Below are positions 2,461 to 62,529 of a DNA stretch of 64,000 nt, in pieces. The stretch covers positions 62,396,537 to 62,460,536 of the forward strand of contig NC_054708.1 in NCBI RefSeq assembly GCF_016097555.1, in the 5' to 3' direction. The stretch's first letter is position 1; each line of letters starts with the position of its first letter. The notes under the pieces were generated by a model. It was not told where the DNA came from, made no database searches, and saw only the letters and a program-made list of their open reading frames with translations. The translations under genes were made by a program, and so were the position numbers. Source of the DNA: Gigantopelta aegis. Lineage: Eukaryota.

Positions 2461-3966
2461 ACACAATGGATGAACGTTCTAGTTGTCACTCTGCTGTTAG
2501 TAGCAGGATTTAGCTCAGTCAGTCGATCAACACAATGGACGAACGTTCTAGTTGTCACTCTGCTGTTAGTAGCAGGATTTAGCTCAGTCAGTCGATCAAC
2601 ACAATGGACGAACGTTCTAGTTGTCACTCTGCTGTTAGTAGCAGGATTTAGCTCAGTCGATCAACACAATGGACGAACGTTCTAGTTGTCACTCTGCTGT
2701 TAGTAGCAGGATTTAGCTCAGTCAGTCGATCAACACAATGGACGAACGTTCTAGTTGTCACTCTGCTGTTAGTAGCAGGATTTAGCTCAGTCAGTCGATC
2801 AACACAATGGACGAACGTTCTAGTTGTCACTCTGCTGTTAGTAGCAGGATTTAGCTCAGTCAGTCGATCAACACAATGGACGAACGTTCTAGTTGTCACT
2901 CTGCTGTTAGTAGCAGGATTTAGCTCAGTCAGTCGATCAACACAATGGACGAACGTTCTAGTTGTCACTCTGCTGTTAGTAGCAGGATTTAGCTCAGTCA
3001 GTCGATCAACACAATGGACGAACGTTCTAGTTGTCACTCTGCTGTTAGTAGCAGGATTTAGCTCAGTCAGTCGATCAACACAATGGACGAACGTTCTAGT
3101 TGTCACTCTGCTGTTAGTAGCAGGATTTAGCTCAGTCAGTCGATCAACACAATGGACGAACGTTCTAGTTGTCACTCTGCTGTTAGTAGCAGGATTTAGC
3201 TCAGTCAGTCGATCAACACAATGGACGAACGTTCTAGTTGTCACTCTGCTGTTAGTAGCAGGATTTAGCTCAGTCAGTCGATCAACACAATGGACGAACG
3301 TTCTAGTTGTCACTCTGCTGTTAGTAGCAGGATTTAGCTCAGTCAGTCGATCAACACAATGGACGAACGTTCTAGTTGTCACTCTGCTGTTAGTAGCAGG
3401 ATTTAGCTCAGTCAGTCGATCAACACAATGGACGAACGTTCTAGTTGTCACTCTGCTGTTAGTAGCAGGATTTAGCTCAGTCAGTCGATCAACACAATGG
3501 ACGAACGTTCTAGTTGTCACTCTGCTGTTAGTAGCAGGATTTAGCTCAGTCAGTCGATCAACACAATGGACGAACGTTCTAGTTGTCACTCTGCTGTTAG
3601 TAGCAGGATTTAGCTCAGTCAGTCGATCAACACAATGGACGAACGTTCTAGTTGTCACTCTGCTGTTAGTAGCAGGATTTAGCTCAGTCAGTCGATCAAC
3701 ACAATGGACGAACGTTCTAGTTGTCACTCTGCTGTTAGTAGCAGGATTTAGCTCAGTCAGTCGATCAACACAATGGACGAACGTTCTAGTTGTCACTCTG
3801 CTGTTAGTAGCAGGATTTAGCTCAGTCAGTCGATCAACACAATGGACGAACGTTCTAGTTGTCACTCTGCTGTTAGTAGCAGGATTTAGCTCAGTCAGTC
3901 GATCAACACAATGGATGAACGTTCTAGTTGTCACTCTGCTGTTAGTAGCAGGATTTAGCTCAGTCA
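2461..3966. repeat. 69-bp tandem array, about 22 nearly identical copies (one 65-bp variant)
   Basis: Unit is acacaatggacgaacgttctagttgtcactctgctgttagtagcaggatttagctcagtcagtcgatca. The unit 3' part matches a SINE tRNA-like head (ggacttagctcagtcggtcaagtgg at 53298). The array runs straight into a SINE body at 3962. Confidence 0.95.
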
Positions 3967-5281
3967 GTCGATCAAACTACCTTGGTGGATCCAGTCAACT
4001 GATTGTTTTTTTCTTGTTCCAACCAGTGCACGTCAACGGCCATCACCTATGGTATGTGCTTTACTGTCTTTGGGAAAGTGCATATAAAAGATCCCTTGCT
4101 GCTAATGGAAAAATGTAGCAGGTTTCATCTGATGACCGAGTCAGAATTACCAAAATGTTGGACATTCAATAGGTGATGATTAATTAATCAATGTGCTCTA
4201 GTAGTGTCGTTGAACAAATCAAACTTTTTTCTTTGCTGTTACTATTTATGTGATCCCCTATTTCTTTTCATCACTATACTCAACGCATAAATCAATGAGA
4301 TCCATCAGAACAGACAAATTACAGGAATCAGTTTAAAAACATGACTAGCTGATCCTCGGTAGCGAAAAGATGGGGAAACAATGGTATAGAGAATTTAATA
4401 ACTGCTGCTACCAAAAGGACTACCCTTAGCTCTTATATCAGTCTATTAACCAACATAACAAAACAACATATATATACCTTTCATCTGCATACAAGTCGGT
4501 AAAGTAATAATTTAAGAACCTATAGAAAACCATGTTAAATTATTTATTTACATTTTAAATTTTTTATGGTAAAGTGCGCGGTCTGTCTGGGATCGATCCC
4601 TGTCCGTGGGCCCATTGGGTAATTTCTCATTCCAGCCAGTGCACCACGACTGGTATATCAAAGGCTGTGGTATGTACTACCCTGTCTGTGGGATGATGCA
4701 TATAAAAGAACCCCATGAAGTAGCAACAGTGGGTTTCCTCTCTCAATATCTGTGGTCCGTAATCATATCTGGCACCATATAACCGTAAATAAAATGTGTT
4801 GAGTGCATCATTAAATAAAACATTTCTTTCTTTTTTTACGTACAAAAAAGAGCACGATTAACGTGCATGCACACACGCACAAACGGCAGGCTGAACGTGT
4901 CCGGCTGCACGTAGAACTGGATTCAACTAGGTTAAGTAATAATTAAGCCAACCTCTGGATGGCAAAACATGCGACAGTAGGCCCTTATACTGTTTTGTTT
5001 TGTTTGTTTGTTTGTTGTTATTTTTTGTGGGGTTTTGTGTTGTTGTTTTTTTGTGGGTTTTTTTTTTTGTGGGTTTTTTTTTTGGGGGGGGGGGAGAGGG
5101 GGTTATGCTGTACATTAAACCGAATGACCACTTTGCGAACCAGTCAAAATAATTTGCAAACGTTTAACGAAAAACGACTGGCTAGCCGTATGCCACATTT
5201 GTGACGCTGGAAAACATGTCAGTTTTCAAACCGAGTATTATAGCTTCTAACCCGTCTAAACTCTTTCCCCTGCTACCGGCC

Positions 5282-10989: not shown

Positions 10990-11345
10990 ATTAAATCCAT
11001 TTACTGGCGTCGTGGTTAGGCCAGTCGAGGCATGGGATTTTTAATCCAGATACCGATTCCAAACCCTGAGTGAGTGCTCCGCAAGGCTCAATGGGTAGGT
11101 GTAAACCACTTGCACCGACCAGTGATCCATAACTGGTTCAATAAAGGCCATGGTTTGTGCTATCCTACCTGTGGGAAGCGCAAATAAAAGATCCCTTGCT
11201 GCTAATCGGAAAGAGTAGCCCATGTAGTGGCGACAGCGTGTTTCCTCTAAAAAAACTGTGTGGTCCTTAACCATGTGTCTGGTGCCATATAACCGTAAAT
11301 AAAATGTGTTGAGTGCATCGTTAAATAAAACATTTCTTTCTTTCT
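10990..11345 (+). mobile_element. tRNA-derived SINE (head type 2)
   Basis: About 90% identical to 5282-5650. Confidence 0.8.
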
Positions 11346-11674
11346 TTTTTTTAATATCCATTTGTTCTTTAAAAAGCAATAAAATATGTTTCAATCAATC
11401 AATTAAATTTTATTTTAAACCACATCTGTATAAAGGAAAAATGTGGCAGAACCACCAGGCATAAAATAATCATTTGAGTGCCTCCCATAATTAATGCCCC
11501 ATGGGATCAATTCCAGAACAGCTCTTAATAGGACAACTCAAAATGGCTTGGTCAATACAGATAGTGTTAACAACTCGGCTGAGATTATACAAATTCTATT
11601 TTATACTTGACAAACAGTTATAAGGAACATGAAACAATTTACATGTACTTGAAGAATCCTGAAAGTAAACAAAC

Positions 11675-11755
11675 CTCAATTTCTGCTTTCTGCTTCTTCA
11701 TGAACAACTCAAGTTCATTCTGACGTCTGAGATATTTGATCTCATTTGATCTGAC
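11675..11755 (-). CDS. MVP: MVP exon (VRSNEIKYLRRQNELELFMKKQKAEIE)
   Basis: Matches human/sea urchin ...REAEINYAREQNELEISKAKEMADIE. Acceptor ctgacag, donor GTTTGT. Confidence 0.8.
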
Positions 11756-12237
11756 CTGTCAGTAAAAAGAATATTGTAGTTACATTTATCCTATAACTTA
11801 CATAAACCCATTTGTTATTTATCATTATTAACAATGTTAATATTTTTTTTGCTGTCAATGGGTCATTTGTTTACAAGCCAACAAGACCTGTACATTCATG
11901 AGTGTAACGTTTTGATAAAATTTAGTTTAAGTGTGCTATGATGATGATGTCACAATTACTGATGATGGCAACTTTAGAACTGTGATTTACTAAATATCAA
12001 ATTAAAATGTTATTTTAGAAGTGTTATAGGATAAACAGAATTTTCTACTCATGATTTTTAATATGTAAAATATCAAACTTGCCATTAATATCAATTTGTC
12101 TTGGTAGAGCCTCAACAAATACTGATTAACATGACTTGGTGAATATTTTACATACTGATAAACACTCATGAAGAATCCTATGAAACTACTTTTAGTAAAT
12201 TAATAACATTATCTCATTTAAAATACTAAGCATAATT

Positions 12238-12556
12238 CATGGATGTGAGAGCTACGCGGAAAAGCATAAATGCGCTTTTCCATTTCGTCTTAAAACACCC
12301 CCCCCCAAAAACCAGATGCACCTTTTGGCGGACAGAGACTGTCGCGCTGCGCACAAGAGTTAGATCGCAAGTAGTATCGTGTGATCGCAAGTAGTGTTCA
12401 CGAATAGTACATTCCCATGGCTGGATTTCATCAGCTTTGCTGCGATTGGCCAGTTTTGTCTAAACCAGGATATGCTATTTGAAAGCCTTTGTTTGACTTG
12501 GGAAGAAAGAAGGTGAGCAGTAAGCTGTTTTGTTTCAGCCCCTCTCACATCCCTGA
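12238..12556. mobile_element. Possible MITE with 11-bp TIRs ggatgtgagag ... ctctcacatcc
   Basis: TIRs at 12241-12251 and 12542-12552. GC-richer interior than the flanks. Confidence 0.35.
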
Positions 12557-13462
12557 TAATTCTTTGGTGTCATGTTTTGTTTATGAATGAAATATTACTG
12601 TAAATCAGGAAATGTTAGTGAGCATAAAATGTTAGCGAATTTAGTGAGGTCATACAAGATGCTAATATTTGATGACGCTAAATTTAAAGAGACATACAAT
12701 GGATTGTTCCAATAACATCTGTAATGAACTGAATTCGGAACAATGGTTACATGCTATTGATTAAATCAAAAAGATAGCAAACAATAGTTAGTTAGCATGC
12801 AAATTACTGCAATGTTCTACTAAATTCAAAATGTTTGTAAGCTGCATAATGTCAAGATTCGTCAAAAACATTATTTCAGCTGATCCTATAACTTAAGCTT
12901 TTTCTTTTTTTTAGTTTCTGATGTCGCTTATTTGAATTTAGCTAAATTTTAAGATAACTAATATTTTATGATTTACAGTATTTTGATAATTGCAATCTGT
13001 CATTGTGGGTTTTTTTTAAATGCTTCGATGATATTAACTTAAAGATAGTGTTGAAATTTGAAAAGTTAACAACAGAAAAGACTTGAGCATACTGGAATGT
13101 AATACAGAAGCATGATACTTTTAAAATATCTTATTGGAGAAAATAAGATATCACACCAACACTAAGAGCAAAGAGTGACTGCAACCAAAACTCGCATCCA
13201 GTTTCAGGAAGCTAACCATATTCAATCCCACAATTTTATATTTTATTCAAACATTTCGACATGTATAGTGAATTAAATTTGGTCTGCAATTCCAAGTGTT
13301 CCCTTATTTCTTTATCTCAGTATTTATTAATTTTATATAACTTTGCAGTTGAAACATTTTCAAACCGATCTCAATTTTGCTGAAAAACCCAACAAACCCA
13401 CCCTCCAACAAACACAGAAGGAAAAGAATGGATGACACTCAACATAATTCCCACACACTGAC

Positions 13463-13527
13463 CAGGTTTTGTGACTCCAAGTTGGCTTCATGCTCTATTT
13501 CTTTTGCTTCTGCCTTCAGTGTTACAG
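13463..13527 (-). CDS. MVP: MVP exon (A-VTLKAEAKEIEHEANLESQNL)
   Basis: Matches human [26 protein letters not shown]. Acceptor ttttgcag, donor GTCAGT. Confidence 0.8.
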
Positions 13528-13729
13528 CTGCAAAATATAACGCAGTAAAAGTATAGGATTGTAGTGCATATAAAAAGTCAAAGAAAAGTAAGCATAATAC
13601 GAATATGATTGTAAAGCATGTAAAAAAAACTACTTCTCAGCAATAAATATTTGGTGGAAGTGAAACTTTTGTCTCGTTTTGTAAACACAAATAATTATAG
13701 GATATTAAATAAGCTTCCATTTAGTAACA

Positions 13730-13870
13730 TGTTGCATGTTCCTTGTGAAATAATTTTCATTGTCACTCGCTAAAGCTTGTGACAACTGAACATTATTTCA
13801 CTCGTGACATATTTAGCGAGTAACAATGAAAATTATTTCACATAATATGAAATGGTAGCGAGTTTAGTAT
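13730..13870. mobile_element. Hairpin MITE (gtgaaataattttcattgtcactcgctaaag / inverse); related copy at 44560-44690
   Basis: Arms at 13748-13778 and 13803-13838 are inverted. 44568 gtgaaataattttcattgtcacccgctaaag. Confidence 0.55.
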
Positions 13871-14017
13871 CCTATTTAATACCCATAATTGATCTTAATT
13901 TATATTACTCAACTTGTGTAGTTGACATTCCTGTAAGGTAGTGCACCAATCAATGATGTCATCGTGTGATGTCAAAGTGATACGTCCCACGTATCACTTT
14001 GATATGTACCAAAATAT

Positions 14018-15620
14018 TTTTAATAATATGTGATTATTAAAGCCCGGTTTATGTTTCCCTGTTCAACCCATGCAGCCTGTTTACCTTCAATCTCACTGTT
14101 ACAAATAATATGTGATTATTAAAGCCTGGTTTGTGTTTCCTTGTTCAGCCCGTACAGCCTGTTTACCTTCAATCTCACTGTTACAAATAATATGTGATTA
14201 TTAATGCCCGGTTTGTGTTTCCTTGTTCAGCCTGTGCAGCCTGTTTACCTTTGATCTCACTGTGACAAATAATATGTGATTATTAAAGCCCGGTTTGTGT
14301 TCAGCCCATGCAACCTGTTTACCTTCGATCTTGCTGTGACAAATAATATGTGATTATTAAAGCCCGGTTTGTGTTTCCTTGTTCAGCCCGTGCAGACTGT
14401 TTACCTTCGATCTCACTGTGACAAATAATATGTGATTATTAAAGCCCGGTTTGTGTTCAGCCCGTTCAGCCTGTTTACCTTCGATCTCACTGTGACAAAT
14501 AATATGTGATTATTAAAGCCCGGTTTGTGTTCAGCCCGTGCAGCCTGTTTACCTTTGATCTCACTGTGACAAATAATATGTGATTATTAAAGCCCGGTTT
14601 GTGTTCAGCCCGTGCAGCCTGTTTACCTTCGATGTCACTGTGACAAATAATATGTGATTATTAAAGACCGGTTTGTGTTCAGCCTGTGCAGCCCGTTTAC
14701 CTTCGATCTCGCTGTGACAAATAATATGTGATTATTAAAGCCCGGTTTGTGTTTCCTTGTTCAGCCCGTGCAGCCTGTTTACCTTCGATCTCAATGTGAC
14801 AAATAATATGTGATTATTAAAGCCCGGTTTGTGTTCTGCCTGTGCAGCCTGTTTACCTTCGATCTCACTGTGACAAATAATATGTGATTATTAAAGCCCG
14901 GTTTGTGTTCAGCCCATGCAGCCTGTTTACCTTTGATCTCACTGTGACAAACAATATGTAATTATTAATGCCCGGTTTGTGTTTCCTTGTTCAGCCCATG
15001 CAGCCTGTTTACCTTTGATCTCACTGTGACAAACAATATGTGATTATTAAAGCCCGGTTTGTGTTCAGCCCGTGCAGCCTGTTTACCTTTGATCTCACTG
15101 TGACAAACAATATGTAATTATTAATGCCCGGTTTGTGTTTCCTTGTTCAGCCCGTGCAGCCTGTTTAACTTCGATCTCACTGTGACAAATAATATGTGAT
15201 TATTAAAGCCCGGTTTGTGTTCAGCCCGTGCAGCCTGTTTACCTTCGATCTCACTGTGACAAATAATATGTGATTATTAAAGTCCGGTTTGTATTTCCTT
15301 GTTCAGCCCGTTTACCTTCGATCTCACTGTGACAAATAATATGTGATTATTAAAGCCCAGTTTGTGTTCAGCCCGTGCAGCCTGTTTACCTTCGATCTCA
15401 CTGTGACAAATAATATGTGATTATTAATGCCCGGTTTAAGTTCAGCCCGTGCAGCCCGTTTACCTTTGATCTCACTGTGACAAATAATATGTGATTATTA
15501 AAGCCCAGTTTGTGTTTCCTTGTTCAGCCCGTGCAGCCTGTTTACCTTCGATCTCACTGTCACAAATAATATGTGATTATTAAAGCTTGGTTTGTGTTCA
15601 GCCTGTTTACCTTCGATCTC
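14018..15620. repeat. 74/81-bp intronic minisatellite, about 21 copies; the unit contains the MVP exon 21 end plus its splice donor
   Basis: Unit (minus strand) is ...atttgtcacagtgagatcgaag|gtaaacaggctgcacgggctgaacacaaaccgggctttaataatcacatatt. The first unit overlaps the authentic exon end TGTCACAGCGAGATCGAAG|gtaaacagg at 15601-15629. Confidence 0.9.
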
Positions 15621-15837
15621 GCTGTGACACTCGATGATAACCCGCTCGGCCTGGGCCTGAGCCTCGGCTTTAGCCTGGCCGCACGACTCGATAGCCGCCG
15701 AGATCGCCTGCAGCTCCAGCAACTTGGCGCGCTCCTTCTCAGACTCCTTCTCATTGAGGAGTTTCTGTCGCTCCAGTTCACCACGCGCTATCTGCTCATT
15801 TCTCTCTGCTTCATGAAATGCGGATGCTTCAATGGAC
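15611..15837 (-). CDS. MVP: MVP exon 21 ([76 protein letters not shown]-)
   Basis: Matches human ...[69 protein letters not shown]. Acceptor tatcacag, donor GAAG|GTAAAC. The last 19 nt plus the donor are copied in the downstream array. Confidence 0.85.
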
Positions 15838-16513
15838 CTGTGATAAAAATGTGGGTTTTTTTATTTTGTTTAATTATTATTATTTTTTAAGAAATTGTGT
15901 TTGGATTTTACAATTAATAGATATCAGTTGTAAAAGTCAAGCATTTCAAGTATGGTGTAACTGTTTAAATAAGGTATATATCAGGCATGGCAGAAGCAAT
16001 TAGACATTGGGAGGTGGGGGGCTGACTGAGATATGGGTGTTCGGAGATATGCTCCCTCGTAAAATTTTGAAAACTAGATGTCCTGAAATGCAATTTCCTG
16101 CATTCTACAATTAAAATTCATATCTGCCAATTACTACCAATAATATTTTTGATTCAGAATTATTGGGGGTTCTAGAGCACCCACCCCACTCCAACGTGTC
16201 TGTATATATGCCTAGGATATTTTGTGATATTCATCTACACTGAGGATATCTAAAATACTTTAATTAATAATAATAATATGACAATGAAAAGACTAATATG
16301 TGACTCATATATTATACAGTCATGTACATGTAGTTGAATTGATCTTCAGATTACTCCATCTTACTACACTTGGTGTGCAGGATTCAGTCAAAAGTTTTAA
16401 ATTCAAGACTTTATTACCCTGACATATTTTAACAATATATAATATGGTGGTAGTCCTCGAGCACCATGATTATAAATAATTTGAAAATACATTTTTAAAA
16501 CGTCAGAAATCAC

Positions 16514-17439: not shown

Positions 17440-20200
17440 TTTTAAACACTACAACATATTTTCACTATTAACACGTTGACTGCTGCCCACGAGTATATTC
17501 GTATGCTGAGCGCACCAGATTTTGCCACTACGAGTTTACTCGTAGTAAAACCAGTGCTGTGTCGTATTAAATTAAAGTTGTCAGCAATGGCAATAACACA
17601 ATTAGTAACCTTTCTGGCAATGACTAATAACAAATTGATGTAATAATCAATGAAATTATTTATTAATTAATGTTTGAATGATTTTGATTGTGAACACAAG
17701 TCACAGCATTTCATAATGGAAATATCTTGACACATATCTCTTTGACTAAATCATTTATAGTTATAATGTTAAAAATCAACATAAATACAGGAACAGATTT
17801 ATTCCTAATGTTTCAGAGCAATTTGGACTATGTTTGAAACATTCATATAAATGATGAATCAATGATCGTCTTCATTGATGAAAGTCAAAACTATAACACA
17901 GCGATCAAAAGAAAAAACCGTTTTGCCATGTATAATGTGTCTATGCTTGAACTATTAATAAATGTGGGTTTATTGTCAGTGTCATATTGAATTGGTATGT
18001 CCATTATTCTGACATGTGATAAACTTTGAAACATTTTCCCACACAAACAGCTGGCTTCCTGGGGCAGACTTCACAGATGTAACAGGATTCCCGTCTTGTA
18101 CCGGCCTTTGTGCACACTCGGCAAGGTTTGGTAGGTCGCTCTTTCTTCTCTGTGGGAGGCAGTGGTGCAAGGTAATGGAATGTCTCATTTACTGGAGCCT
18201 GGGAATGTGCTGGGCCGTGGTCATGTAATTTGTCATAGACATCACCAAGCAGGTGAATTGTAATTCTAGGATATGCAGGACAATCTTCTTATACCACCGG
18301 ATTGTCTTGCGCAGCGCCGGGTAGTAAGACAGCATTTGATCTGACCTGTCTACTCCAGCCATGCCATTGTTGTAATCTCGGACTGTGTTCGGCTTTCTTG
18401 ACAGCTTGTCATTCCGATTTCTAACATCAACCATCTCAATTCGATGCATGTTGCTGATTGTAAGAACTTTGCATTTGTCTTTCCATTTGCAAACTACCAC
18501 TGATTCAGACCGCTTCCAAACATGTTCCCCCTTCTTCAACTTCTGTTTGATTAAATCTTTTGGATTTTCTTTTCTGTCAAATCGCAGAGTTCCACAAAGA
18601 TAGGTTGATCGGTTTGTCATCTTCTTCACCAGACTCACAGAATTGTAATAATTATCTGTGTACACCACATGGCCTTTGTCTAGGTAGCCGTCCAAGAGGT
18701 CTAGAACAGTTGCAGCAACTTGACCATAGCCATCATCATCAGTTAGGTGGACACCACTGTATACCCAAATCTTCAGAACAGTGCCTCAAGGCTTGCACAG
18801 TTCATAGAGTTTGATTCCATATTTATGACGTTTATTCTTGATATACTGGCGAAACAGCAATCTGCCACGCCAAAGTACCATGGACTCATCAATAGAGAGA
18901 TCTTTCCCTGGATAGTAAATAGCCGGCATGACATCGTTGAAATGATCCAGAACAGTGCGTATCTTGAACAAGCGATCATCATTATGTTGATCATTGTCTG
19001 CAAAATGCCAGAAACGCAAAAGTAGTTGGAAATGGTTGCGGCTCATGACACCACCAAAAAATGGTGAACTGTATAGAACATCAGTACTCCAGTAGTGTTG
19101 TATAGTAGGCAAGGTTTTTGGACCCATGTGAAGCAACAATGCAATGAACTGTTTCATTTCCTTAGCATCCGTGTCCTTCCAAGATTTCAAATGTGATTCT
19201 CTTCTTAAAGGACACTGCTTGTTTATTTCCACTGCAGCATATCGATTTGTTTCTGTAACCATTTTATCTATCAACTGTGGTGTCAGAAATAAATCAAAAT
19301 ATGCACCGGGCGATGTATCCTGTAAGTCCATTCTAAGACCAGAGTTTTCAGTGAAAGCAAAGTCAGGTGGATCTTGGGCAACATCTAACCATGTATGCAC
19401 TGGGACAGCACAATTTCCACGCCCATCTGCTCCATTCCGTCCTGTGCCTGGTGCTGGGCTGGAAACTGCTTGTCTATTAAACAAAATTGCAGCTCTACCT
19501 TGACCACGATATCGTACACTTCGACCTCTAGCTGGTGTAACCGCACCACGCCTACCACGGCCATCACCGCTTCCAGGAGTTCCACGACCACGAGGTCCTC
19601 GAGTGCGAACACCACGAAATCTAGACCTACCACGTGTTGCCGGTTGTACCCCATCGTCACTTGAAACATACGAGTCTGATGAAATCATTGTATCACCTTC
19701 TTCACTGCTCCAGTTAGTATGAAGATCTAGTGAATCAGTATCACTAATATCCATATCAGGATCATCACTTTCCTCATCTGTTTCCATCATCAAAGCGGCA
19801 ACTTGCTCAGCAGAAAGGTTTCTAGTCGCCATTTTGGAAAGTAGCAAGTACTGAGTATCAAAATTACGTAACAAAAACCAATGACGCAATAAAATCTGGG
19901 AGGCACGTGACTCGTAGCTGGCAAATACAATACAGTGATTGCATAATGTTGCCAAACTACGACTTGTACTTGGCATACCAAATAAAAATGTTATATTTCA
20001 TTGCCAGCTACGAGTAATTTCATGTCACATGCTCTTCCATAAACGTACTAAGTAATATGCATAAAATAACTTAGAAATAACATTTATGGGTAAATAAAGG
20101 AAATGCATATCTTTATATGACTTGGCAAACTGGACCAGCCGCCATTTTGTTTACGGCACTCAACGTGTTAAAGACGTTTCTGATAATTTAACTTAGAAGT
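17440..20200 (-). mobile_element. piggyBac-like DNA transposon relic inside an MVP intron (boundaries approximate)
   Basis: ccctagttttTTAAacac at 17444. Subterminal inverted repeat ttaacacgttgac (17468) and its inverse gtcaacgtgttaa (20163). Repeated ctacgagt subterminal motifs at both ends. Confidence 0.5.
17982..19976 (-). pseudogene. piggyBac-type transposase (DDE_Tnp_1_7-like) broken into three ORF pieces (396+168+68 aa) by two frame disruptions
   Basis: Peptides SPGAYFDLFLTPQLIDKMVTETNRYA, YYPGKDLSIDESMVLWRGRLLFRQYIKNKRHKYGIKLYELC, HVVYTDNYYNSVSLVKKM and CGTLRFDRKENP are piggyBac hallmarks. C-terminal Cys-rich piece CLPQRRKSDLPNLAECAQRPV. Confidence 0.8.
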
Positions 20201-23410: not shown

Positions 23411-26010
23411 CTGAAAATTAACAAAATCCACATGCAATTACATAGATACCACTTTAGTGTTAGTTTAATGTACAAAATGTTTTATGTTAGTTCACTCTGT
23501 AAAGGTGATAAAAACAACTATTATTAATGAAGAGTAATTGTGACGGGGGTTTTTCGCATTCAAAGTGTCAATTTTTTTTTTTTTTTATAAAAGCTCAAAT
23601 TTGTATTAAAATGTTTGTTCTCGAAAATTATTAAAATTTAAGCCCTGGGATTAAAGATGAGCTGTGCTGGTAATCTTGTAGGCTACAAAAATAAAATCAA
23701 TTTTAATACTGACACATGTAAAATAAATCCTTTTGTCTTAACTCCCCTTGTCACCTTCTTCAGTTACGGTGAGCCCATTCGGTACGTAGATCTCCTATAC
23801 AAGTCATGAGTATTCTGCTATGAGTGCTATGTAAACTGGACCCTGATCGAAACTGTCAAATGTCTATAATGGTTTTATTCTGCTGTGTATGATTTTCTCA
23901 AACAACGATTTTCCCCAAATAGAATACAGTGAAACCAGTCTAAACCAGATCATTCCGGGGACCTAATATTTATCTGATTTAGACAGGATCCAGTGTTTAG
24001 ATGGTCACATTTTAGTATTTGGAGAATTCGGGACCATGAAACTTGGCCAATTTTGACAGGATTCCAGTTTGTTCTAGGTCCAGTTTCGACAGGTTTCACT
24101 GTATTTCAAAACGACAATGATTATTTTATAAATTTATTATAACCAGTGCCAATGTCCATCATAAATCTAAATGTACTCACCTCAAAACGACAATGATTAT
24201 TTTATAAATTTATTATAACCAGTGCCAATGTCCATCATAAATCTAAATGTACTCACCTCAAAATGATTGTTGAAACATATTCTCACTCTCAGTCTAGCAT
24301 GGTCAGATGTTTCAACCTAGCAAAATGAAAAAGAGACAATGAAGTATTTTATGTATGCCAGGGCTTCTAGATTATGGTAGCCCCACTTCCATGGCTAGTG
24401 ATATTCAATGCTGGGCTAGTAAATAACTACTATTGCCATGCCCGACGGCTAGTGAAAAGAAAGAAAAAAAAGAGTCTAATGCTGCAGTTAGGTCTATTTT
24501 GTAAATATATATATACCCACACCACCACCACCACCACCAAGTGTTAGTGTTTTTAAGCTCTATCTTCCTGTTTAGGTGTCATATCTGATTACTATTAATT
24601 AGTAAAATTATATTAACTTAAAGTAAAGTAGGGCTAGTGAATTTTTAATCGTGGCTAGTACATTTTTAAAATCACTGATCCCATGACTAGTGGATTTTTA
24701 TAAAATTCTATAAGCCCTGTGTATGCACTAATCACCTGTTAAATATATTCTTATGACATGTTTGTCCAATCTGTTTTAAAATATGTTCAACATACATGAA
24801 TACAATTATTTGTTGAACATGTATTTAAATATATTTATAATGTTCTTGTTCATTAGGATTTTTTGTGTGAGCACGCACTTTAAAAACCAAAACAAAATGT
24901 TGTTAAAACAAATTGCTCTTTTAGTACTGGATGGGTGTAGCAATGAATACTCTTTGTAATTTGTATATGTGTGAAAATGTTGATAATAAGTAGAAATTCA
25001 ACATGCATCAAAATAAAATGTGGTACATCTTGTCAGTGGCATTCTAACATACAGTGGTTATAATTTACAGAGATATGTGTGTGTGTTTGGGGGGGGGGGG
25101 GGGGGGCGCTCCAAAGTGCCCCTATTCTTTAAAATTGAATGAATTAATATAAATTTGTTTTTAAGAGAGGATGGTTGTAATATGTTAGTTGGCTGGGTGT
25201 TTTCAGGATGGAATGGCATATAAATAATGTTAGTATAGTTTAGAATAATAAAAATGTCCTCACTACATTTGTATTTTTCAAATCTATATACCAGCTGCAT
25301 AAAACATGCATGCATTCATTCCTGTTATTAAAAGCATGCTTGGTAAAAAGTATCAAAATCATACTTTATACAAACTTGGTAAAAAGTATTAAAATAATAC
25401 TGTATACAAGTGTGGTAAAAAATATTAAGATCATACTTTATTCACATTTGCTCAAACAATATTAACAACACATATACATATACATGCTTACTAAGGCTCA
25501 TTTTCTATTTGTTTACATGATTATACTAAATGGTGTTTCAAGCTATTTCAGCTATTTAAACTGTCTATCTAGATAAAATCTGATAGCCAAATTACTAGCG
25601 GTTAACAAAGGAATGAATGTTTATCCACACCCCAGCATGAAAAATACACTGGTTATTGGGTGCATGGTTAAAGAGACAGAAATCCATGTAAAGATTACAT
25701 CTCTCCACTGATATGAAGCCAGTACTGGAATACGAACCCAACACATACCAAATGTGGTTTTTTTTTAACTGACCCCAGATCAATAATAATGTCAGGGTTG
25801 GGGAGCCTTGTATCACCACCGTACAATACAGTTTTAATTACACCAAATATATCCAAGTAAATGAAATATTAGATAAAACAAAATCTTAATACTGATGGCA
25901 ACCGTAAGCCGGTAGCATGGTGGTTAAGCCAGGGCATAAACCTGCACAATATCTCATTTTGTACCACGGGACGATATTTAAACATCTTAGGTAACCGGAA
26001 TTCAATTTAC

Positions 26011-30169: not shown

Positions 30170-30822
30170 TGCAATCATCAAGCTTTAACTGTAGAAATGT
30201 CGAGATAGATGGACATGTGGATGATTAGTGCCCAATGGGCCCACTGAAGGGGATCAACTTATGAAACAATTCATCCAGCTTTAACTGTATGCACCATCCC
30301 ACAGGCAGGATCACACATACCACGGCCTTTAATATACAAGTTGTGGTGTACTGGCTGAACGATAAGTTGCCCAATGGGCCCACTGAAGGGGATCGATCTG
30401 CCTGTTACTGAAAGAAACAATTCATCACAGCTTTAACTGTAGAAAATGTCGAGATAGATGGACATGTGGATGATGAGTTGCCCAATGGGCCCACTGAAGG
30501 GGATCGATCTGCCTGTTACTGAAAGAAACAATTCATCACAGCTTTAACTGTAGAAAATGTCGAGATAGATGGACATGTGGATGATGAGTTGCCCAATGGG
30601 CCCACTGAAGGGGATCGATCTGCCTGTTACTGAAAGAAACAATTCATCACAGCTTTAACTGTAGAAAATGTCGAGATAGATGGACATGTGAACGATAAGT
30701 TGCCCAATGGGCCCACTGAAGGGGATCGATCTGCCTGTTACTGAAAGAAACAATTCATCACAGCTTTAACTGTAGAAAATGTCGAGATAGATGGACATGT
30801 GGATGATGAGTTGTAAACACAC
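30170..30822. repeat. 114-bp tandem array (about 4 full copies plus degenerate ones) derived from the SINE core and tail
   Basis: Unit is gttgcccaatgggcccactgaaggggatcgatctgcctgttactgaaagaaacaattcatcacagctttaactgtagaaaatgtcgagatagatggacatgtggatgatga. Ends 1 nt before the MVP exon donor at 30823. Confidence 0.9.
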
Positions 30823-33696: not shown

Positions 33697-36600
33697 TCCT
33701 GCCCCTGCAAAGATGGGAGTCGTAATGCATACTGGTAATAATAATGGCAAAGATGGGAGTCGTAATGCATACTGGTAATAATAATGGCAAAGATGTCGTA
33801 ATGCATACTGGTAATAATAATGGCAAAGATGGGAGTCATAATGCATACTGGTAATAATAATGGCAAAGATGTCATAATGCATACTGGTAATAATAATGGC
33901 AAAGATGTCGTAATGCATACTGGTAATAATAATGGCAAAGATGGGAGTCAAAGCATATGGTAATAATAATGGCAAAGTAATGCATACTGGTAATAATAAT
34001 GGCAAAGATGGGAGTCGTAATGCATACTGGTAATAATAATGGCAAAGATGGGAGTCGTAATGCATACTGGTAATAACAATGGCAAAGATGGGAGTCGTAA
34101 TGCATACTGGTAATAACAATGGCAAAGATGGGAGTCGTAATGCATACTGGTAATAATAATGGCAAAGATGGGAGTCGTAATGCATACTGGTAATAATAAT
34201 GGCAAAGATGGGAGTCATAATGCATACTGGTAATAATAATGGCAAAGATGTCATAAAAGTAATAATAATGGCAAAGATGTCATAATGCATACTGGTAATA
34301 ATAATGGCAAAGATGGGAGTCATAATGCATACTGGTAATAATAATGGCAAAGATGTCATAATGCATACTGGTAATAATAATGGCAAAGATGGGAGTCGTA
34401 ATGCATACATAATGGCAAAGATGGGAGTCGTAATGCATACTGGTAATAATAATGGCAAAGATGGGAGTCGTAATGCATACTGGTAATAATAATGGCAAAG
34501 ATGGGAGTCGTAATGCATACTGGTAATAATAATGGCAAAGATGGGAGTCGTAATGCATACTGGTAATAATAATGGCAAAGATGGGAGTCGTAATGCATAC
34601 TGGTAATAATAATGGCAAAGATGGGAGTCGTAATGCATACTGGTAATAATAATGGCAAAGATGGGAGTCGTAATGCATACTGGTAATAATAATGGCAAAG
34701 ATGGGAGTCATAATGCATACTGGTAATAATAATGGCAAAGATGTCATAATGCATACTGGTAATAATAATGGCAAAGATGTCATAATGCATACTGGTAATA
34801 ATAATGGCAAAGATGGGAGTCGTAATGCATACTGGTAATAACAATGGCAAAGATGGGAGTCGTAATGCATACTGGTAATAATAATGGCAAAGATGGGAGT
34901 CATAATGCATACTGGTAATAATAATGGCAAAGATGGGAGTCGTAATGCATACTGGTAATAACAATGGCAAAGATGGGAGTCGTAATGCATACTGGTAATA
35001 ATAATGGCAAAGATGGGAGTCGTAATGCATACTGGTAATAATAATGGCAAAGATGGGAGTCATAATGCATACTGGTAATAATAATGGCAAAGATGTCATA
35101 ATGCATACTGGTAATAATAATGGCAAAGATGTCATAATGCATACTGGTAATAATAATGGCAAAGATGGGAGTCGTAATGCATACTGGTAATAATAATGGC
35201 AAAGATGGGAGTCATAATGCATACTGGTAATAATAATGGCAAAGATGTCATAATGCATACTGGTAATAATAATGGCAAAGATGTCATAATGCATACTGGT
35301 AATAATAATGGCAAAGATGGGAGTCATAATGCATACTGGTAATAATAATGGCAAAGATGTCATAATGCATACTGGTAATAATAATGGCAAAGATGGGAGT
35401 CGTAATGCATACTGGTAATAATAATGGCAAAGATGGGAGTCATAATGCATACTGGTAATAATAATGGCAAAGATGGGAGTCGTAATGCATACTGGTAATA
35501 ATAATGGCAAAGATGGGAGTCGTAATGCATACTGGTAATAATAATGGCAAAGATGGGAGTCGTAATGCATACTGGTAATAATAATGGCAAAGATGGGAGT
35601 CATAATGCATACTGGTAATAATAATGGCAAAGATGTCATAATGCATACTGGTAATAATAATGGCAAAGATGTCATAATGCATACTGGTAATAATAATGGC
35701 AAAGATGGGAGTCATAATGCATACTGGTAATAATAATGGCAAAGATGTCATAATGCATACTGGTAATAATAATGGCAAAGATGGGAGTCGTAATGCATAC
35801 TGGTAATAATAATGGCAAAGATGGGAGTCGTAATGCATACTGGTAATAATAATGGCAAAGATGGGAGTCGTAATGCATACTGGTAATAATAATGGCAAAG
35901 ATGGGAGTCGTAATGCATACTGGTAATAATAATGGCAAAGATGGGAGTCGTAATGCATACTGGTAATAATAATGGCAAAGATGGGAGTCGTAATGCATAC
36001 TGGTAATAATAATGGCAAAGATGGGAGTCGTAATGCATACTGGTAATAATAATGGCAAAGATGGGAGTCGTAATGCATACTGGTAATAATAATGGCAAAG
36101 ATGGGAGTCGTAATGCATACTGGTAATAATAATGGCAAAGATGGGAGTCATAATGCATACTGGTAATAATAATGGCAAAGATGTCATAATGCATACTGGT
36201 AATAATAATGGCAAAGATGTCATAATGCATACTGGTAATAATAATGGCAAAGATGGGAGTCGTAATGCATACTGGTAATAACAATGGCAAAGATGGGAGT
36301 CGTAATGCATACTGGTAATAATAATGGCAAAGATGGGAGTCATAATGCATACTGGTAATAATAATGGCAAAGATGGGAGTCGTAATGCATACTGGTAATA
36401 ACAATGGCAAAGATGGGAGTCGTAATGCATACTGGTAATAATAATGGCAAAGATGGGAGTCGTAATGCATACTGGTAATAATAATGGCAAAGATGGGAGT
36501 CATAATGCATACTGGTAATAATAATGGCAAAGATGTCATAATGCATACTGGTAATAATAATGGCAAAGATGTCATAATGCATACTGGTAATAATAATGGC

Positions 36601-37143
36601 AAAGATGGGAGTCGTAATGCATACTGGTAATAATAATGGCAAAGATGGGAGTCGTAATGCATACTGGTAATAATAATGGCAAAGATGGAAGTCATAATGC
36701 ATACTGGTAATAATAATGGCAAAGATGTCATAATGCATACTGGTAATAATAATGGCAAAGATGTCATAATGCATACTGGTAATAATAATGGCAAAGATGG
36801 TAGTCGTAATGCATACTGGTAATAACAATGGCAAAGATGGGAGTCGTAATGCATACTGGTAATAATAATGGCAAAGATGGGAGTCGTAATGCATACTGGT
36901 AATAATAATGGCAAAGATGGGAGTCGTAATGCATACTGGTAATAATAATGGCAAAGATGGGAGTCATAATGCATACTGGTAATAATAATGGCAAAGATGT
37001 CATAATGCATACTGGTAATAATAATGGCAAAGATGTCATAATGCATACTGGTAATAATAATGGCAAAGATGGGAGTCGTAATGCATACTGGTAATAACAA
37101 TGGCAAAGATGGGAGTCGTAATGCATACTGGTAATAATAATGG
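33697..37143. repeat. 3.4-kb AT-rich minisatellite of 40-bp and 36-bp units with higher-order alternation
   Basis: Units are ggcaaagatgggagtcgtaatgcatactggtaataataat (40) and ggcaaagatgtcataatgcatactggtaataataat (36). Roughly 88 units. Begins directly at the tRNA-like head end of a SINE at 33690. Confidence 0.95.
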
Positions 37144-37292
37144 CACAGTTGGCAATGTGCTAGCCAAACAAAGCAGTTTATCTGTGGTATTTCTTTAATG
37201 TTTACATCTGAAAAGTTCTTCAATACACTTGAGATTTATACGTGGTACCATACTTGTGATATCTGTGACATTAACAACATGCCTACATGTAC

Positions 37293-50794: not shown

Positions 50795-51115
50795 AAGGGT
50801 TTTTTTGTTAATGAAACCACTAGAGCACATTGATTTATTAATCATCAGATGTAGGATGTCAAACGTTTGGTAATTTTGACAGATAGTCTTAGAGAGGAAA
50901 CCTGCTACATTTTTCCATTAGTAACAAGGGATCTTTTACATGCACCATCCCACAGACAGGATAGCACATACCATGGTCTTTGATATACTAGTCATGGTGC
51001 ACTACATGGAACGAGAAATATCCCAATGGGCCCACCAATGGGGATCGATTGCAGACCGACTCTGCATCAAGCAAGTGCTTTACCACTGGGCTACTTCCCG
51101 ACCCAGATTGAAATG
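50795..51115 (-). mobile_element. tRNA-derived SINE (type 1), full length, minus orientation
   Basis: Tail accactagagcacattgatttattaatcat at the low-coordinate end. Head rc(gggtcgggaagtagcccagtggtaaagcacttgcttgatgcagagtcggtctgcaatcgatcccc) at the high-coordinate end. Confidence 0.8.
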
Positions 51116-51830
51116 ATGTAAAAATGCATTTAGGCTACTTGACCGGCCTTGATGGCACAGTGGTTAAGCCATTGGACTATAGGCTGGTAGGTACAGGATT
51201 TGCAGCTCGGTACCAACTCCAACCCAGATTGAAATGATGTAAAAATGCATTTAGGCTACTTGACCGGCCTTGATGGCACAGTGGTTAAGCCATCGGACTA
51301 TAGGCTGGTAGGTACAGGATTTGCAGCTAGGCACCAACTCCGACCCAGATTGAAATGATGTAAAAATGCATTTAGGCTACTTGACCGGCCTTGATGGCAC
51401 AGTGGTTAAGCCATTGGACTATAGGCTGGTAGGTACAGGATTTGCAGCTCGGTACCAACTCCGACCCAGATTGAAATGATGTAAAAATGCATTTAGGCTA
51501 CTTGACCGGCCTTGATGGCACAGTGGTTAAGCCATCGGACTATAGGCTGGTAGGTACAGGATTTGCAGCTCGGTACCAACTCCGACCCAGATTGAAATGA
51601 TGTAAAAATGCATTTAGGCTACTTGACCGGCCTTGATGGCACAGTGGTTAAGCCATCGGACTATAGGCTGGTAGGTACAGGATTTGCAGCTCGGTACCAA
51701 CTCCGACCCAGATTGAAATGATGTAAAAATGCATTTAGGCTACTTGACCGGCCTTGATGGCACAGTGGTTAAGCCATCGGACTATAGGCTGGTAGGTACA
51801 GGATTTGCAGCTCGGTACCAACTCCAACCC
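51100..51830. repeat. 120-bp tandem array (6 copies) built from the tRNA-like head of a third SINE type; the SINE body follows at 51830-52015
   Basis: Unit is cccagattgaaatgatgtaaaaatgcatttaggctacttgaccggccttgatggcacagtggttaagccatcggactataggctggtaggtacaggatttgcagctcggtaccaactccga. The same head and body appear as a single copy at 39880-40110. Confidence 0.9.
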
Positions 51831-52094
51831 AGAGCGAGTTCTTAAGGGCTCAATGGGTAAGTGTAAGGCCACTACACTCTCTTTTCTCTCACTAACCAAC
51901 TAACAACTAACCAACTGTCCTGGACAGGCAGCCCAGAGAGCTGATGTGTGTGCCCAGGACATCGTGCTTGAACCTTAATTGGATATAAGCACGAAAATAA
52001 GTTGAAATGAATAAATGGGTTAATTGGTTTAAAATAAGTTCCAGTATGAACATATATAGATAACGTACAGATAGCATATGAAGGCAAAACTTAC

Positions 52095-60910: not shown

Positions 60911-62529
60911 ATATACTACTCAAAAGAATTTAAGGGTCAGACGATATTTTCGACATTATTTTCTGAATGTCAATTATATTAGCTAGACCATAATGTCACG
61001 CATGGTATTGTTCCATTTTGACGAAAGTGGGTCTAAGCAACCCATAAATGAATTAAAATCCACTGTCATTGACACTGTCGACTAGTTCTAATGGCGAAAA
61101 CATGCTTACATTTGCACGTAAATTAGGGCGAAAGCGAAAGGTCTGCTAAGTGCCCATAACTTGCTTTTTCACAAAGCGCTTCATTTGCACGCTTTGCATG
61201 TGTATTCCATGTTCCCAATGCTGAATTTCCGTATAATTGGAGCTTGCGTTCGTGTACGGTGCACACTCCAAATTCGACAATGGTACGACGTCAGCTGACT
61301 ATCGAAGATCGAGGAAGGGCTATTGCTTGGCTTCAGGATGGCAATACGCAAAGAAATGTTGCTCTGAGACTTGGTGTCAGTCAGAGTGTCGTTGGCCGAC
61401 TGTGGCAACGGTACCAAGCAACGAATTCTGTTCGAAATCGTCCACGTTCGGGAAGACCCAGAAGCACTACAAATAGAGAGGACCGCTACATCACCAATAT
61501 GGATCTACGTCAACGCACAACCACTGCACGCCGATTACGTGACAATCTGCGGACTGCGACTGGAACTCGAGTGTCTGATTAAACCATACGCAATCGTCTC
61601 AGAGCCAATAATCTACGCTGCCGTCGCCAGGCTGTTCGACCACCACTCCTACCACGTCACAGAACGGTCAGACGTCACTGGTGCACGCTTCATCTGCGGT
61701 GGCAACGTGTTCAGTGGGGTCGAGTGATGTTCACTGATGAGTCCAGGTTCAGTCTCCAGTTCAACGACGGTCGGGTTCGTGTCTACAGACGTCCTGGGGA
61801 GCGCTTCGCTGACGTTAACGTTAGACAACGTCACCGGTTCGGTGGTGGCAGCTACATGGTGTGGGGCGGCATCTCTATCCACCACAGGACCCCCCTCTAT
61901 GTGGTGGATGGCAATCTGAATGGAATCCGCTATCTGAATGAGATTATTCGGCCGTTGGTTCTCCCAGGCCTTCAGCAGATTGGCGGCGGGGCAGTTCTGC
62001 AGGATGACAATGCCAGACCCCACCGCGCCAGGGTGGTAACGGACTTTCTCAGACAACAAGGTATCGCCAGGATGGATTGGCCAGCATATTCGCCTGACTT
62101 GGCCCCAATAGAGCACGCCTGGGACGAAGTAGGCAGGAGAGTTCGGGATAACCATGCCCCTCCGGCCAACCTTCATGATCTGGGTCAACTTCTTATGGCA
62201 GAGTGGCAGGCCATTCCCCAAGAGTTCTTCAGACGTCTGATCAACAGCATGAGGCAACGATGTGTCGAGTGTATTCGCGCCAGGGGTGGATTCACACACT
62301 ATTAAACGAATGTTCTAATGTGTAAAATCCATGTTTGACAACCTTCAACTTTGACAGCATGTCATGTGACTTTCTTGTATACAGTGACGTTTATTTGTGT
62401 TTTTTTGTAAATATGGAACAATAAATTAAATTTTTGGTGTAGTTTACATCATCAATCTAATACACTCTGAAACTTATTTGGTTATACATTTTTGACCCTT
62501 AAATTCTTTTGAGAAGTATATTAGGGACG
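60911..62529 (+). mobile_element. Tc1-like DNA transposon (copy B), about 1.6 kb with about 25-bp TIRs
   Basis: 5' end tactcaaaagaatttaagggtca (60916-60940) is inverted at 62500-62525. Its termini share atatact..tcaaaag with copy A. Confidence 0.75.
61244..62305 (+). pseudogene. Tc1-like transposase, collinear 353 codons but interrupted by a single in-frame TAA (61580-61582)
   Basis: ORF 61244..61582 and ORF 61724..62305 share one reading frame. Read through, the segment gives ...SD*TIRNRLRANNLRCRRQ...RVMFTDESRF... Copy A has Q (CAA) at the stop position. Motifs FTDESRF, QDDNARPHRA and SPDLAPIEHAWDE are intact. Confidence 0.85.

Follow-up and report, generated by a model that had tools for sequence, protein, structure and literature searches.

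A minisatellite reiterating an exon-intron junction of MVP, most likely a silent passenger

Minisatellites in which the first monomer spans an exon-intron boundary have already been described in human genes by Borensztajn et al. 2006, PLoS Genet (PMC1557585). In F7 IVS7 a 37-bp unit is present in 5 to 9 copies, the first monomer spans the exon 7/IVS7 boundary and only the authentic donor is used (PMC1557585). This array is polymorphic and its pseudo-sites work once the upstream sites are destroyed, 50 constructs having shown that they are functional but never compete (PMC1557585). The authentic donor is also the only one used in LMNB2 (100 bp, 10-15 copies) and in intron 4 of PDGF (PDGFA; 81 bp, 16-18 copies), whereas two pseudo-sites are used besides the authentic donor in CBS IVS13 (15-20 monomers), and in IFI6 (6-16), at the exon 2/intron 2 junction, the two proximal ones out of 25 pseudo-sites are also used (PMC1557585). 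The array described here, found in an intron of MVP, consists of tandem in-register units, has a first monomer made up of the exon end with its authentic donor and reiterates this donor in 19 of the 20 units that follow; its architecture is thus already known from human F7, IFI6, CBS, LMNB2 and PDGFA, and it is not a new element type.

The closest likeness is to F7 IVS7, where the first monomer also straddles the junction and the authentic donor is followed by tandem identical pseudo-donors, both donors being modest (about 76 for the F7 site TGG/GTGGGT and about 81 for the MVP array, on a Shapiro-Senapathy-type matrix, on which all donor values in this text rest; outside parentheses, a slash in a sequence marks the exon-intron boundary). 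The MVP array differs in its larger unit (74/82 nt against 37), in its 20 downstream copies against 4-8 and in the 19 exonic nt that have been copied, against 4 in F7. The reading frame is kept by no MVP pseudo-site, against two in F7 that would keep it according to the authors of that study (PMC1557585). With IFI6 and CBS the MVP array shares a first unit that spans the junction and is followed by many pseudo-donors. The IFI6 unit, however, is 12 nt long, stays in frame and adds amino acids, while the proximal MVP pseudo-site shifts the frame to a stop. PDGFA and LMNB2 are similar to MVP in unit size and copy number and also have the donor reiterated in the intron, but they are other genes in another lineage with no sequence relationship to this array, and the mechanism has not been studied in them.

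The locus lies on the minus strand of the stretch of DNA analyzed (64 kb in total, hereafter the window). Its parts, in the direction of transcription and with the evidence for each in parentheses, are the following:

15611..15837, minus strand: MVP cap-helix exon (227 nt), ending in phase 1 with G (tblastn, translation and frame, alignment to PDB MVP, homologous ORF fragments).
15605..15613, minus strand: authentic 5' splice site AAG/GTAAAC, cut between 15611 and 15610 (boundary common to seven loci; the 15611-13527 join is ungapped against MVP).
15565..15629, minus strand: unit 1 (65 nt), comprising the last 19 exonic nt, TGTCACAGCGAGATCGAAG, and 46 intronic nt (unit alignment).
14022..15564, minus strand: units 2-21 (73, 74 or 82 nt), each repeating the final 19 exonic nt together with the donor, with 156- and 230-nt blocks of higher order (TRF, 29-mer scan, MAFFT, motif counts against shuffles).
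15163..15171, minus strand: the sole inactivated donor copy, AAGTTAAAC, in unit 7 (29-mer scan, motif count, unit alignment).
13528..14021, minus strand: non-repetitive remainder of the intron (494 nt), with the acceptor ...tatattttgcag (sequence, inverted-repeat search).
13463..13527, minus strand: next MVP exon (65 nt), in which CT completes the split codon G/CT (Ala), followed by codons for VTLKAEAKEIEHEANLESQNL; its donor is CTG/GTCAGT (peptide motif search, sequence, equivalent exons of loci L001 and L002, MVP alignment).

On the minus strand, 21 in-register units follow one another from 15629 to 14022, with lengths of 65, 73, 74 or 82 nt in the single assembly and haplotype that were analyzed, and the array accounts for 1589 nt of the 2083-nt intron. 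The units are arranged head to tail and their lengths fall within the 10-100 nt that define the class of junction minisatellites. TRF calls the array from 14022 to 15603, assigning it a basic period of 74 as well as the higher-order periods 156 and 230. A 29-mer taken across the exon/intron junction, TGTCACAGCGAGATCGAAGGTAAACAGGC, was found in 21 copies with 0-3 mismatches each in a scan allowing up to six, the first copy being the junction itself (15629-15601) and the spacing being 65 nt for the first unit and then 73, 74 or 82 nt. The 16-mer GAGATCGAAGGTAAAC (up to two mismatches) occurs 21 times in the window, always inside the array, against an expectation of 0.01 from shuffled sequences, and the intronic part of the unit has no match elsewhere in the 64 kb; since the unit is confined to the array within the window, it is not a dispersed repeat.

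Alignment with MAFFT gave unit lengths of 65 (unit 1), 73, 74 (eleven units) and 82 nt (eight units), with all 21 units being 93-100% identical to the consensus (TRF, MAFFT). Unit 1 is made up of the last 19 exonic and the first 46 intronic nt and agrees with the consensus at 62 of 65 positions (95%, MAFFT); it is without the 9-nt GCACGGGCT which the other units have, and a further 8-nt insertion in eight units produces the 82-nt type. The edges of the array are clean: it starts at TGTCACAG within the exon and ends between ...ATATTATT and AAAAATATTTT, with unique sequence, AAAAATATTTTGG, directly past its end from 14021 on. In the non-repetitive part of the same intron, a near-perfect palindrome of 17 nt (13969-14005, loop of 3 nt) is found 16 nt past the far edge of the array, and a 31-nt inverted repeat (97%) occurs deeper in the intron at 13744-13842; the latter may be a MITE-like remnant, and any tie between either of these structures and the origin of the array is speculative.

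These results bear on an earlier note on this DNA, which had pointed out that the repeat shares the sequence of the exon-intron junction, that the array has the authentic donor for its first unit and that the last six codons of the exon, CHSEIE, lie inside the repeated segment, all of which the scan, the translation and the unit alignment bear out. The note had put the homology at 28 nt with one mismatch; the shared stretch is there and the mismatch is a CpG-to-TpG change, but the homology extends over the whole 65-nt unit 1. The unit lengths of 74/81 nt given in the note have to be replaced by those measured here, and its figure of about 21 tandem cryptic donors corresponds to the units in all, the downstream copies being 20 in number, of which 19 are intact rather than every one carrying an identical donor.

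The host gene was examined by tblastn with human MVP as the query; the matches were colinear on the minus strand and extended over the window between about 57.5 kb and 9.7 kb. The spliced translation aligns without a gap to residues 634-792 of human MVP in PDB (E=5.9e-35), rat MVP in PDB was also matched (E about 1e-34), and Pfam MVP_shoulder was matched in the preceding exons (E=1.2e-19). These similarities support the assignment of the host gene as MVP on the minus strand, homologous across the shoulder and cap-helix domains, and likewise support the view that the exon adjoining the array encodes part of the cap helix, the coiled-coil part of MVP of which the earlier note had spoken. Up to and including this exon there are 20 tblastn-supported coding segments, to which at most three undetected ones may be added, making it, by this rough count, the 20th to 23rd of about 25 coding exons of MVP in the window; the earlier note had numbered it exon 21.

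The polarity of the duplication was addressed by comparing orthologous loci. The comparison set consisted of seven distinct loci (L001, L002-5, L006, L007, L008, L009 and L010), taken as teleost; since one sample yielded both L008 and L009, the species represented number six or seven. In a protein search with the exon translation, the ORF fragments read ...IEC(H/E)SEIE(G/C) and then diverge. At the nucleotide level the exon end, GAGTG(T/C)(CAC/GAG/GAA)AG(C/T)GA(G/A)AT(C/T/A)GA(A/G)G/gt, is common in position and phase to all seven loci (in L001, for example, ATCGAGTGTCACAGCGAGATCGAAG/gtaggc), which agrees with the proposed exon end ...ECHSEIE/gtaaac; a GT donor is found at the matching position in 7/7 loci and the sequence right after gt is unrelated. 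None of the seven loci has a junction-derived array in the equivalent intron, the orthologous introns can not be aligned with that of the window (best local scores 19-25), and nucleotide identity in the exon is 64-77%. In the homologue search no fragment exceeded 81% identity across the whole exon, and the best match to part of it, P0016, reached 87% over 60%; no second copy of the locus was found by exact look-up of two window ORFs, and a 42-nt unit pattern had no match in the metagenome contigs scanned.

Since the boundary is common to seven array-free loci, the exon end, its phase and the authentic donor are ancestral among the loci compared, and the array is derived, a tandem duplication over the exon boundary that is specific to its lineage. 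Five more distant homologues (P0019-P0023, 59-63% identity) continue in frame for about 13 codons past the exon end (...RIEGEAAVEQARLKADAMEIEA/V...), and their genomes appear to lack the array-bearing intron at that position.

We consider with good confidence that the array is a passenger minisatellite that arose by tandem duplication across the ancestral MVP boundary and whose downstream pseudo-sites are silent. A 65-nt segment straddling the boundary (19 exonic and 46 intronic nt) would have been duplicated in tandem and would then have grown to 21 units through slippage or unequal exchange, in part as multi-unit blocks, gaining small internal indels, one of 9 and one of 8 nt, that gave rise to the 74- and 82-nt unit types. 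The authentic donor is the most upstream unit, and the 19 intact AAG/GTAAAC copies are pseudo-sites. Whether by exon definition or by 5'-to-3' scanning, the first donor after the exon's acceptor would be chosen and the copies would stay silent, as in F7 IVS7, while any leak would lead to premature-stop transcripts cleared by nonsense-mediated decay. It is from this analogy that we infer the silence of the pseudo-sites, and the array is likewise inferred to be selectively neutral; the +65-nt donor may plausibly see some use, by comparison with IFI6 and CBS, where the first two pseudo-sites are used to a limited degree (PMC1557585).

The unit alignment has the marks of such growth: units 7 and 8 resemble units 9 and 10 (GCATTAATAATTACATATTGTT), and units 20 and 21 resemble each other, with the common variants TGTAACAG...GATTGAAG. 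Variants common to groups of units show block duplication, in agreement with the TRF periods of 156 and 230, and such duplications suggest ongoing unequal exchange. Much of the remaining variation involves CpG: the single C/T mismatch that sets the exon apart from the units is of this kind, and GATCGAAG changing to GATCAAAG or GATTGAAG likewise represents CpG changes. Among the 20 intronic units, varying cells make up 13% of CpG columns, 2.6% of other columns and 0.6% (1/180) of the donor 9-mer, although the difference between the donor 9-mer and the rest is not significant (Fisher p=0.11, with cells that are not independent). This pattern fits neutral, methylation-driven CpG decay, and column variation in these 20 units gave neither a clear sign that the pseudo-donors are constrained nor any sign of selection for their inactivation.

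With regard to the donor copies themselves, the exact AAGGTAAAC (AAG/GTAAAC) is present at 20 sites, comprising the authentic donor and 19 of the 20 downstream units, the exception being unit 7, in which the donor has GTT. The authentic donor matches the consensus at 7/9 positions, being without the +5 G and the +6 T, and has a value of about 81 against 77-96 for the other donors of this gene; it is an average donor and not a strong one, as it had been called earlier. Use of the first copy would add 65 nt and shift the frame, so that the next exon reads L-stop, and use of any later copy would include an in-frame TAA in unit 2. A premature stop therefore results from 19/19 intact cryptic donors and, as this holds for every one of them, no protein isoform can come from the copies. 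Transcripts with a premature stop and several exons downstream are likely targets of nonsense-mediated decay.

Two further motifs in the units resemble splice sites. A CpG-to-TpG change has made a second donor-like sequence, ACA/GTGAGA, in 16 units, which is weaker (value about 72 on the same matrix) and out of frame, and each unit has an acceptor-like TTATTTGTCACAG preceded by a branch-point-like CTTTAAT. Taken as splice signals, TTATTTGTCACAG and CTTTAAT would define a pseudo-exon of 11 nt, TGAGATCGAAG, or a site resembling those of recursive splicing, which was considered and set aside, its inclusion causing a frameshift to a stop on translation by hand; nothing in the sequence gave us reason to think that either ACA/GTGAGA or TTATTTGTCACAG is in use. 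Folding of the exon end with three units was no better than that of shuffled sequences (z=-0.91), and an Rfam scan of the window gave no match.

The most serious competitor, which we nevertheless regard as unlikely, is that the array is a working regulatory device, providing either alternative donors directed to nonsense-mediated decay or a U1 snRNP platform that alters splicing efficiency or keeps premature polyadenylation within this intron in check. That 19 donors of average strength are intact, each in 19 nt of authentic exonic context, would suit such a role, and premature stops throughout are just what unproductive splicing requires; the donor 9-mer also varies less than its surroundings, though not significantly so, and IFI6 and CBS offer a precedent for use of the first pseudo-sites (PMC1557585). 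However, the absence of the array from the other MVP loci examined means that this is not conserved MVP regulation, the variation looks like neutral CpG decay, and the identical pseudo-sites of F7 offer the upstream site no competition (PMC1557585). The more specific idea that the 19 donors capture U1 snRNP and that their tunable use diverts MVP pre-mRNA to isoforms subject to nonsense-mediated decay, or sets splicing kinetics, is somewhat less probable again; if it were true, array length would be a heritable dial on vault abundance in this lineage. The earlier statement that the locus is primed for alternative 5' splice-site use does not stand in any productive sense, given the premature stop from every intact cryptic donor and the silence of the F7 pseudo-sites (PMC1557585).

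That the array or its length is an artefact of assembly seems to us very unlikely. Tandem arrays are error-prone in assemblies, and the search for a second copy of the locus from the same species found none against which the array could be compared. The differences between units are nevertheless structured, with 65-, 73-, 74- and 82-nt types, blocks of variants and CpG decay, which is not expected from one repeated mis-assembled read, and several other well-formed minisatellites are present in the same window.

Of the two origins that the earlier note had left side by side, tandem duplication across the boundary is the one that stands. The other, in which a satellite unit already existed and the exon later recruited its end and donor from it, draws its sole support from the sequence shared by the exon end and the units; it is refuted by the same six codons and phase-1 boundary in seven loci without the repeat, the spliced protein runs ungapped through the boundary against human MVP, and the unit is absent elsewhere in the window, leaving this origin highly improbable. 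Finally, that the tandem donors yield MVP isoforms with insertions in the cap-helix coiled coil can practically be dismissed, for although cumulative inserts of 147, 828, 984, 1206 and 1362 nt are divisible by 3, the inserts beyond the first hold the in-frame TAA of unit 2 and the 65-nt insert leads to an immediate stop in the next exon.

A number of other repeats were observed nearby. A second junction-spanning tandem duplication in MVP, a perfect 76-nt repeat of 2.1 copies, is found on the minus strand at 24106-24263, where an MVP exon ends ...CATTTTGAG/GTGAGTAC at 24254/24253 and an identical TTTTGAG/GTGAGTAC follows 76 nt downstream; the duplicated piece contains a strong consensus donor with 7 exonic nt, and its 100% identity suggests that it is young. 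An array of 111 nt in 4.1 copies (97% identity, 30361-30813, minus strand) starts 11 nt past the donor of the MVP exon at 30917-30825 (...CTGCG/GTGTGT) and has an acceptor-like tgtttctttcag in each unit. Large minisatellites are also present in MVP introns at 33707-37152 (40 nt, 88 copies), where the array is the cause of the strong GC skew at 34-38 kb, and at 51098-51833 (121 nt, six copies), and another (69 nt, 22 copies, 99% identity) lies near the start of the window at 2461-3975, the density of tandem arrays in the window being unusually high. In L001 an unrelated 37-nt minisatellite of 143 copies (96% identity, 11191-16471) begins about 18 nt past the donor of the next (65-nt) MVP exon, and in this region of the MVP genes compared, introns seem to have acquired arrays close to their 5' ends on more than one occasion. 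Frames resembling transposases were noticed by eye among spurious tblastn matches, one piggyBac-like within an MVP intron (18918-19154, minus strand) and one Tc1/mariner-like (61673-61795, plus strand).

In conclusion, nothing in the array points to a function in MVP; a functional reading would amount at best to unproductive leakage and, by the precedent of F7, probably to silence, so that the array is most likely a silent passenger. It offers an example, with clear polarity, of a minisatellite born from an exon boundary, and makes the MVP locus a natural case in which 20 identical 5' splice sites face one acceptor. With 19 exonic nt, its pseudo-sites have far more context in common with the authentic donor than is the case in human F7, where 4 nt are shared, and they lie in a non-mammalian gene; for these reasons the locus could be used to test 5'-to-3' scanning against exon definition outside mammals.
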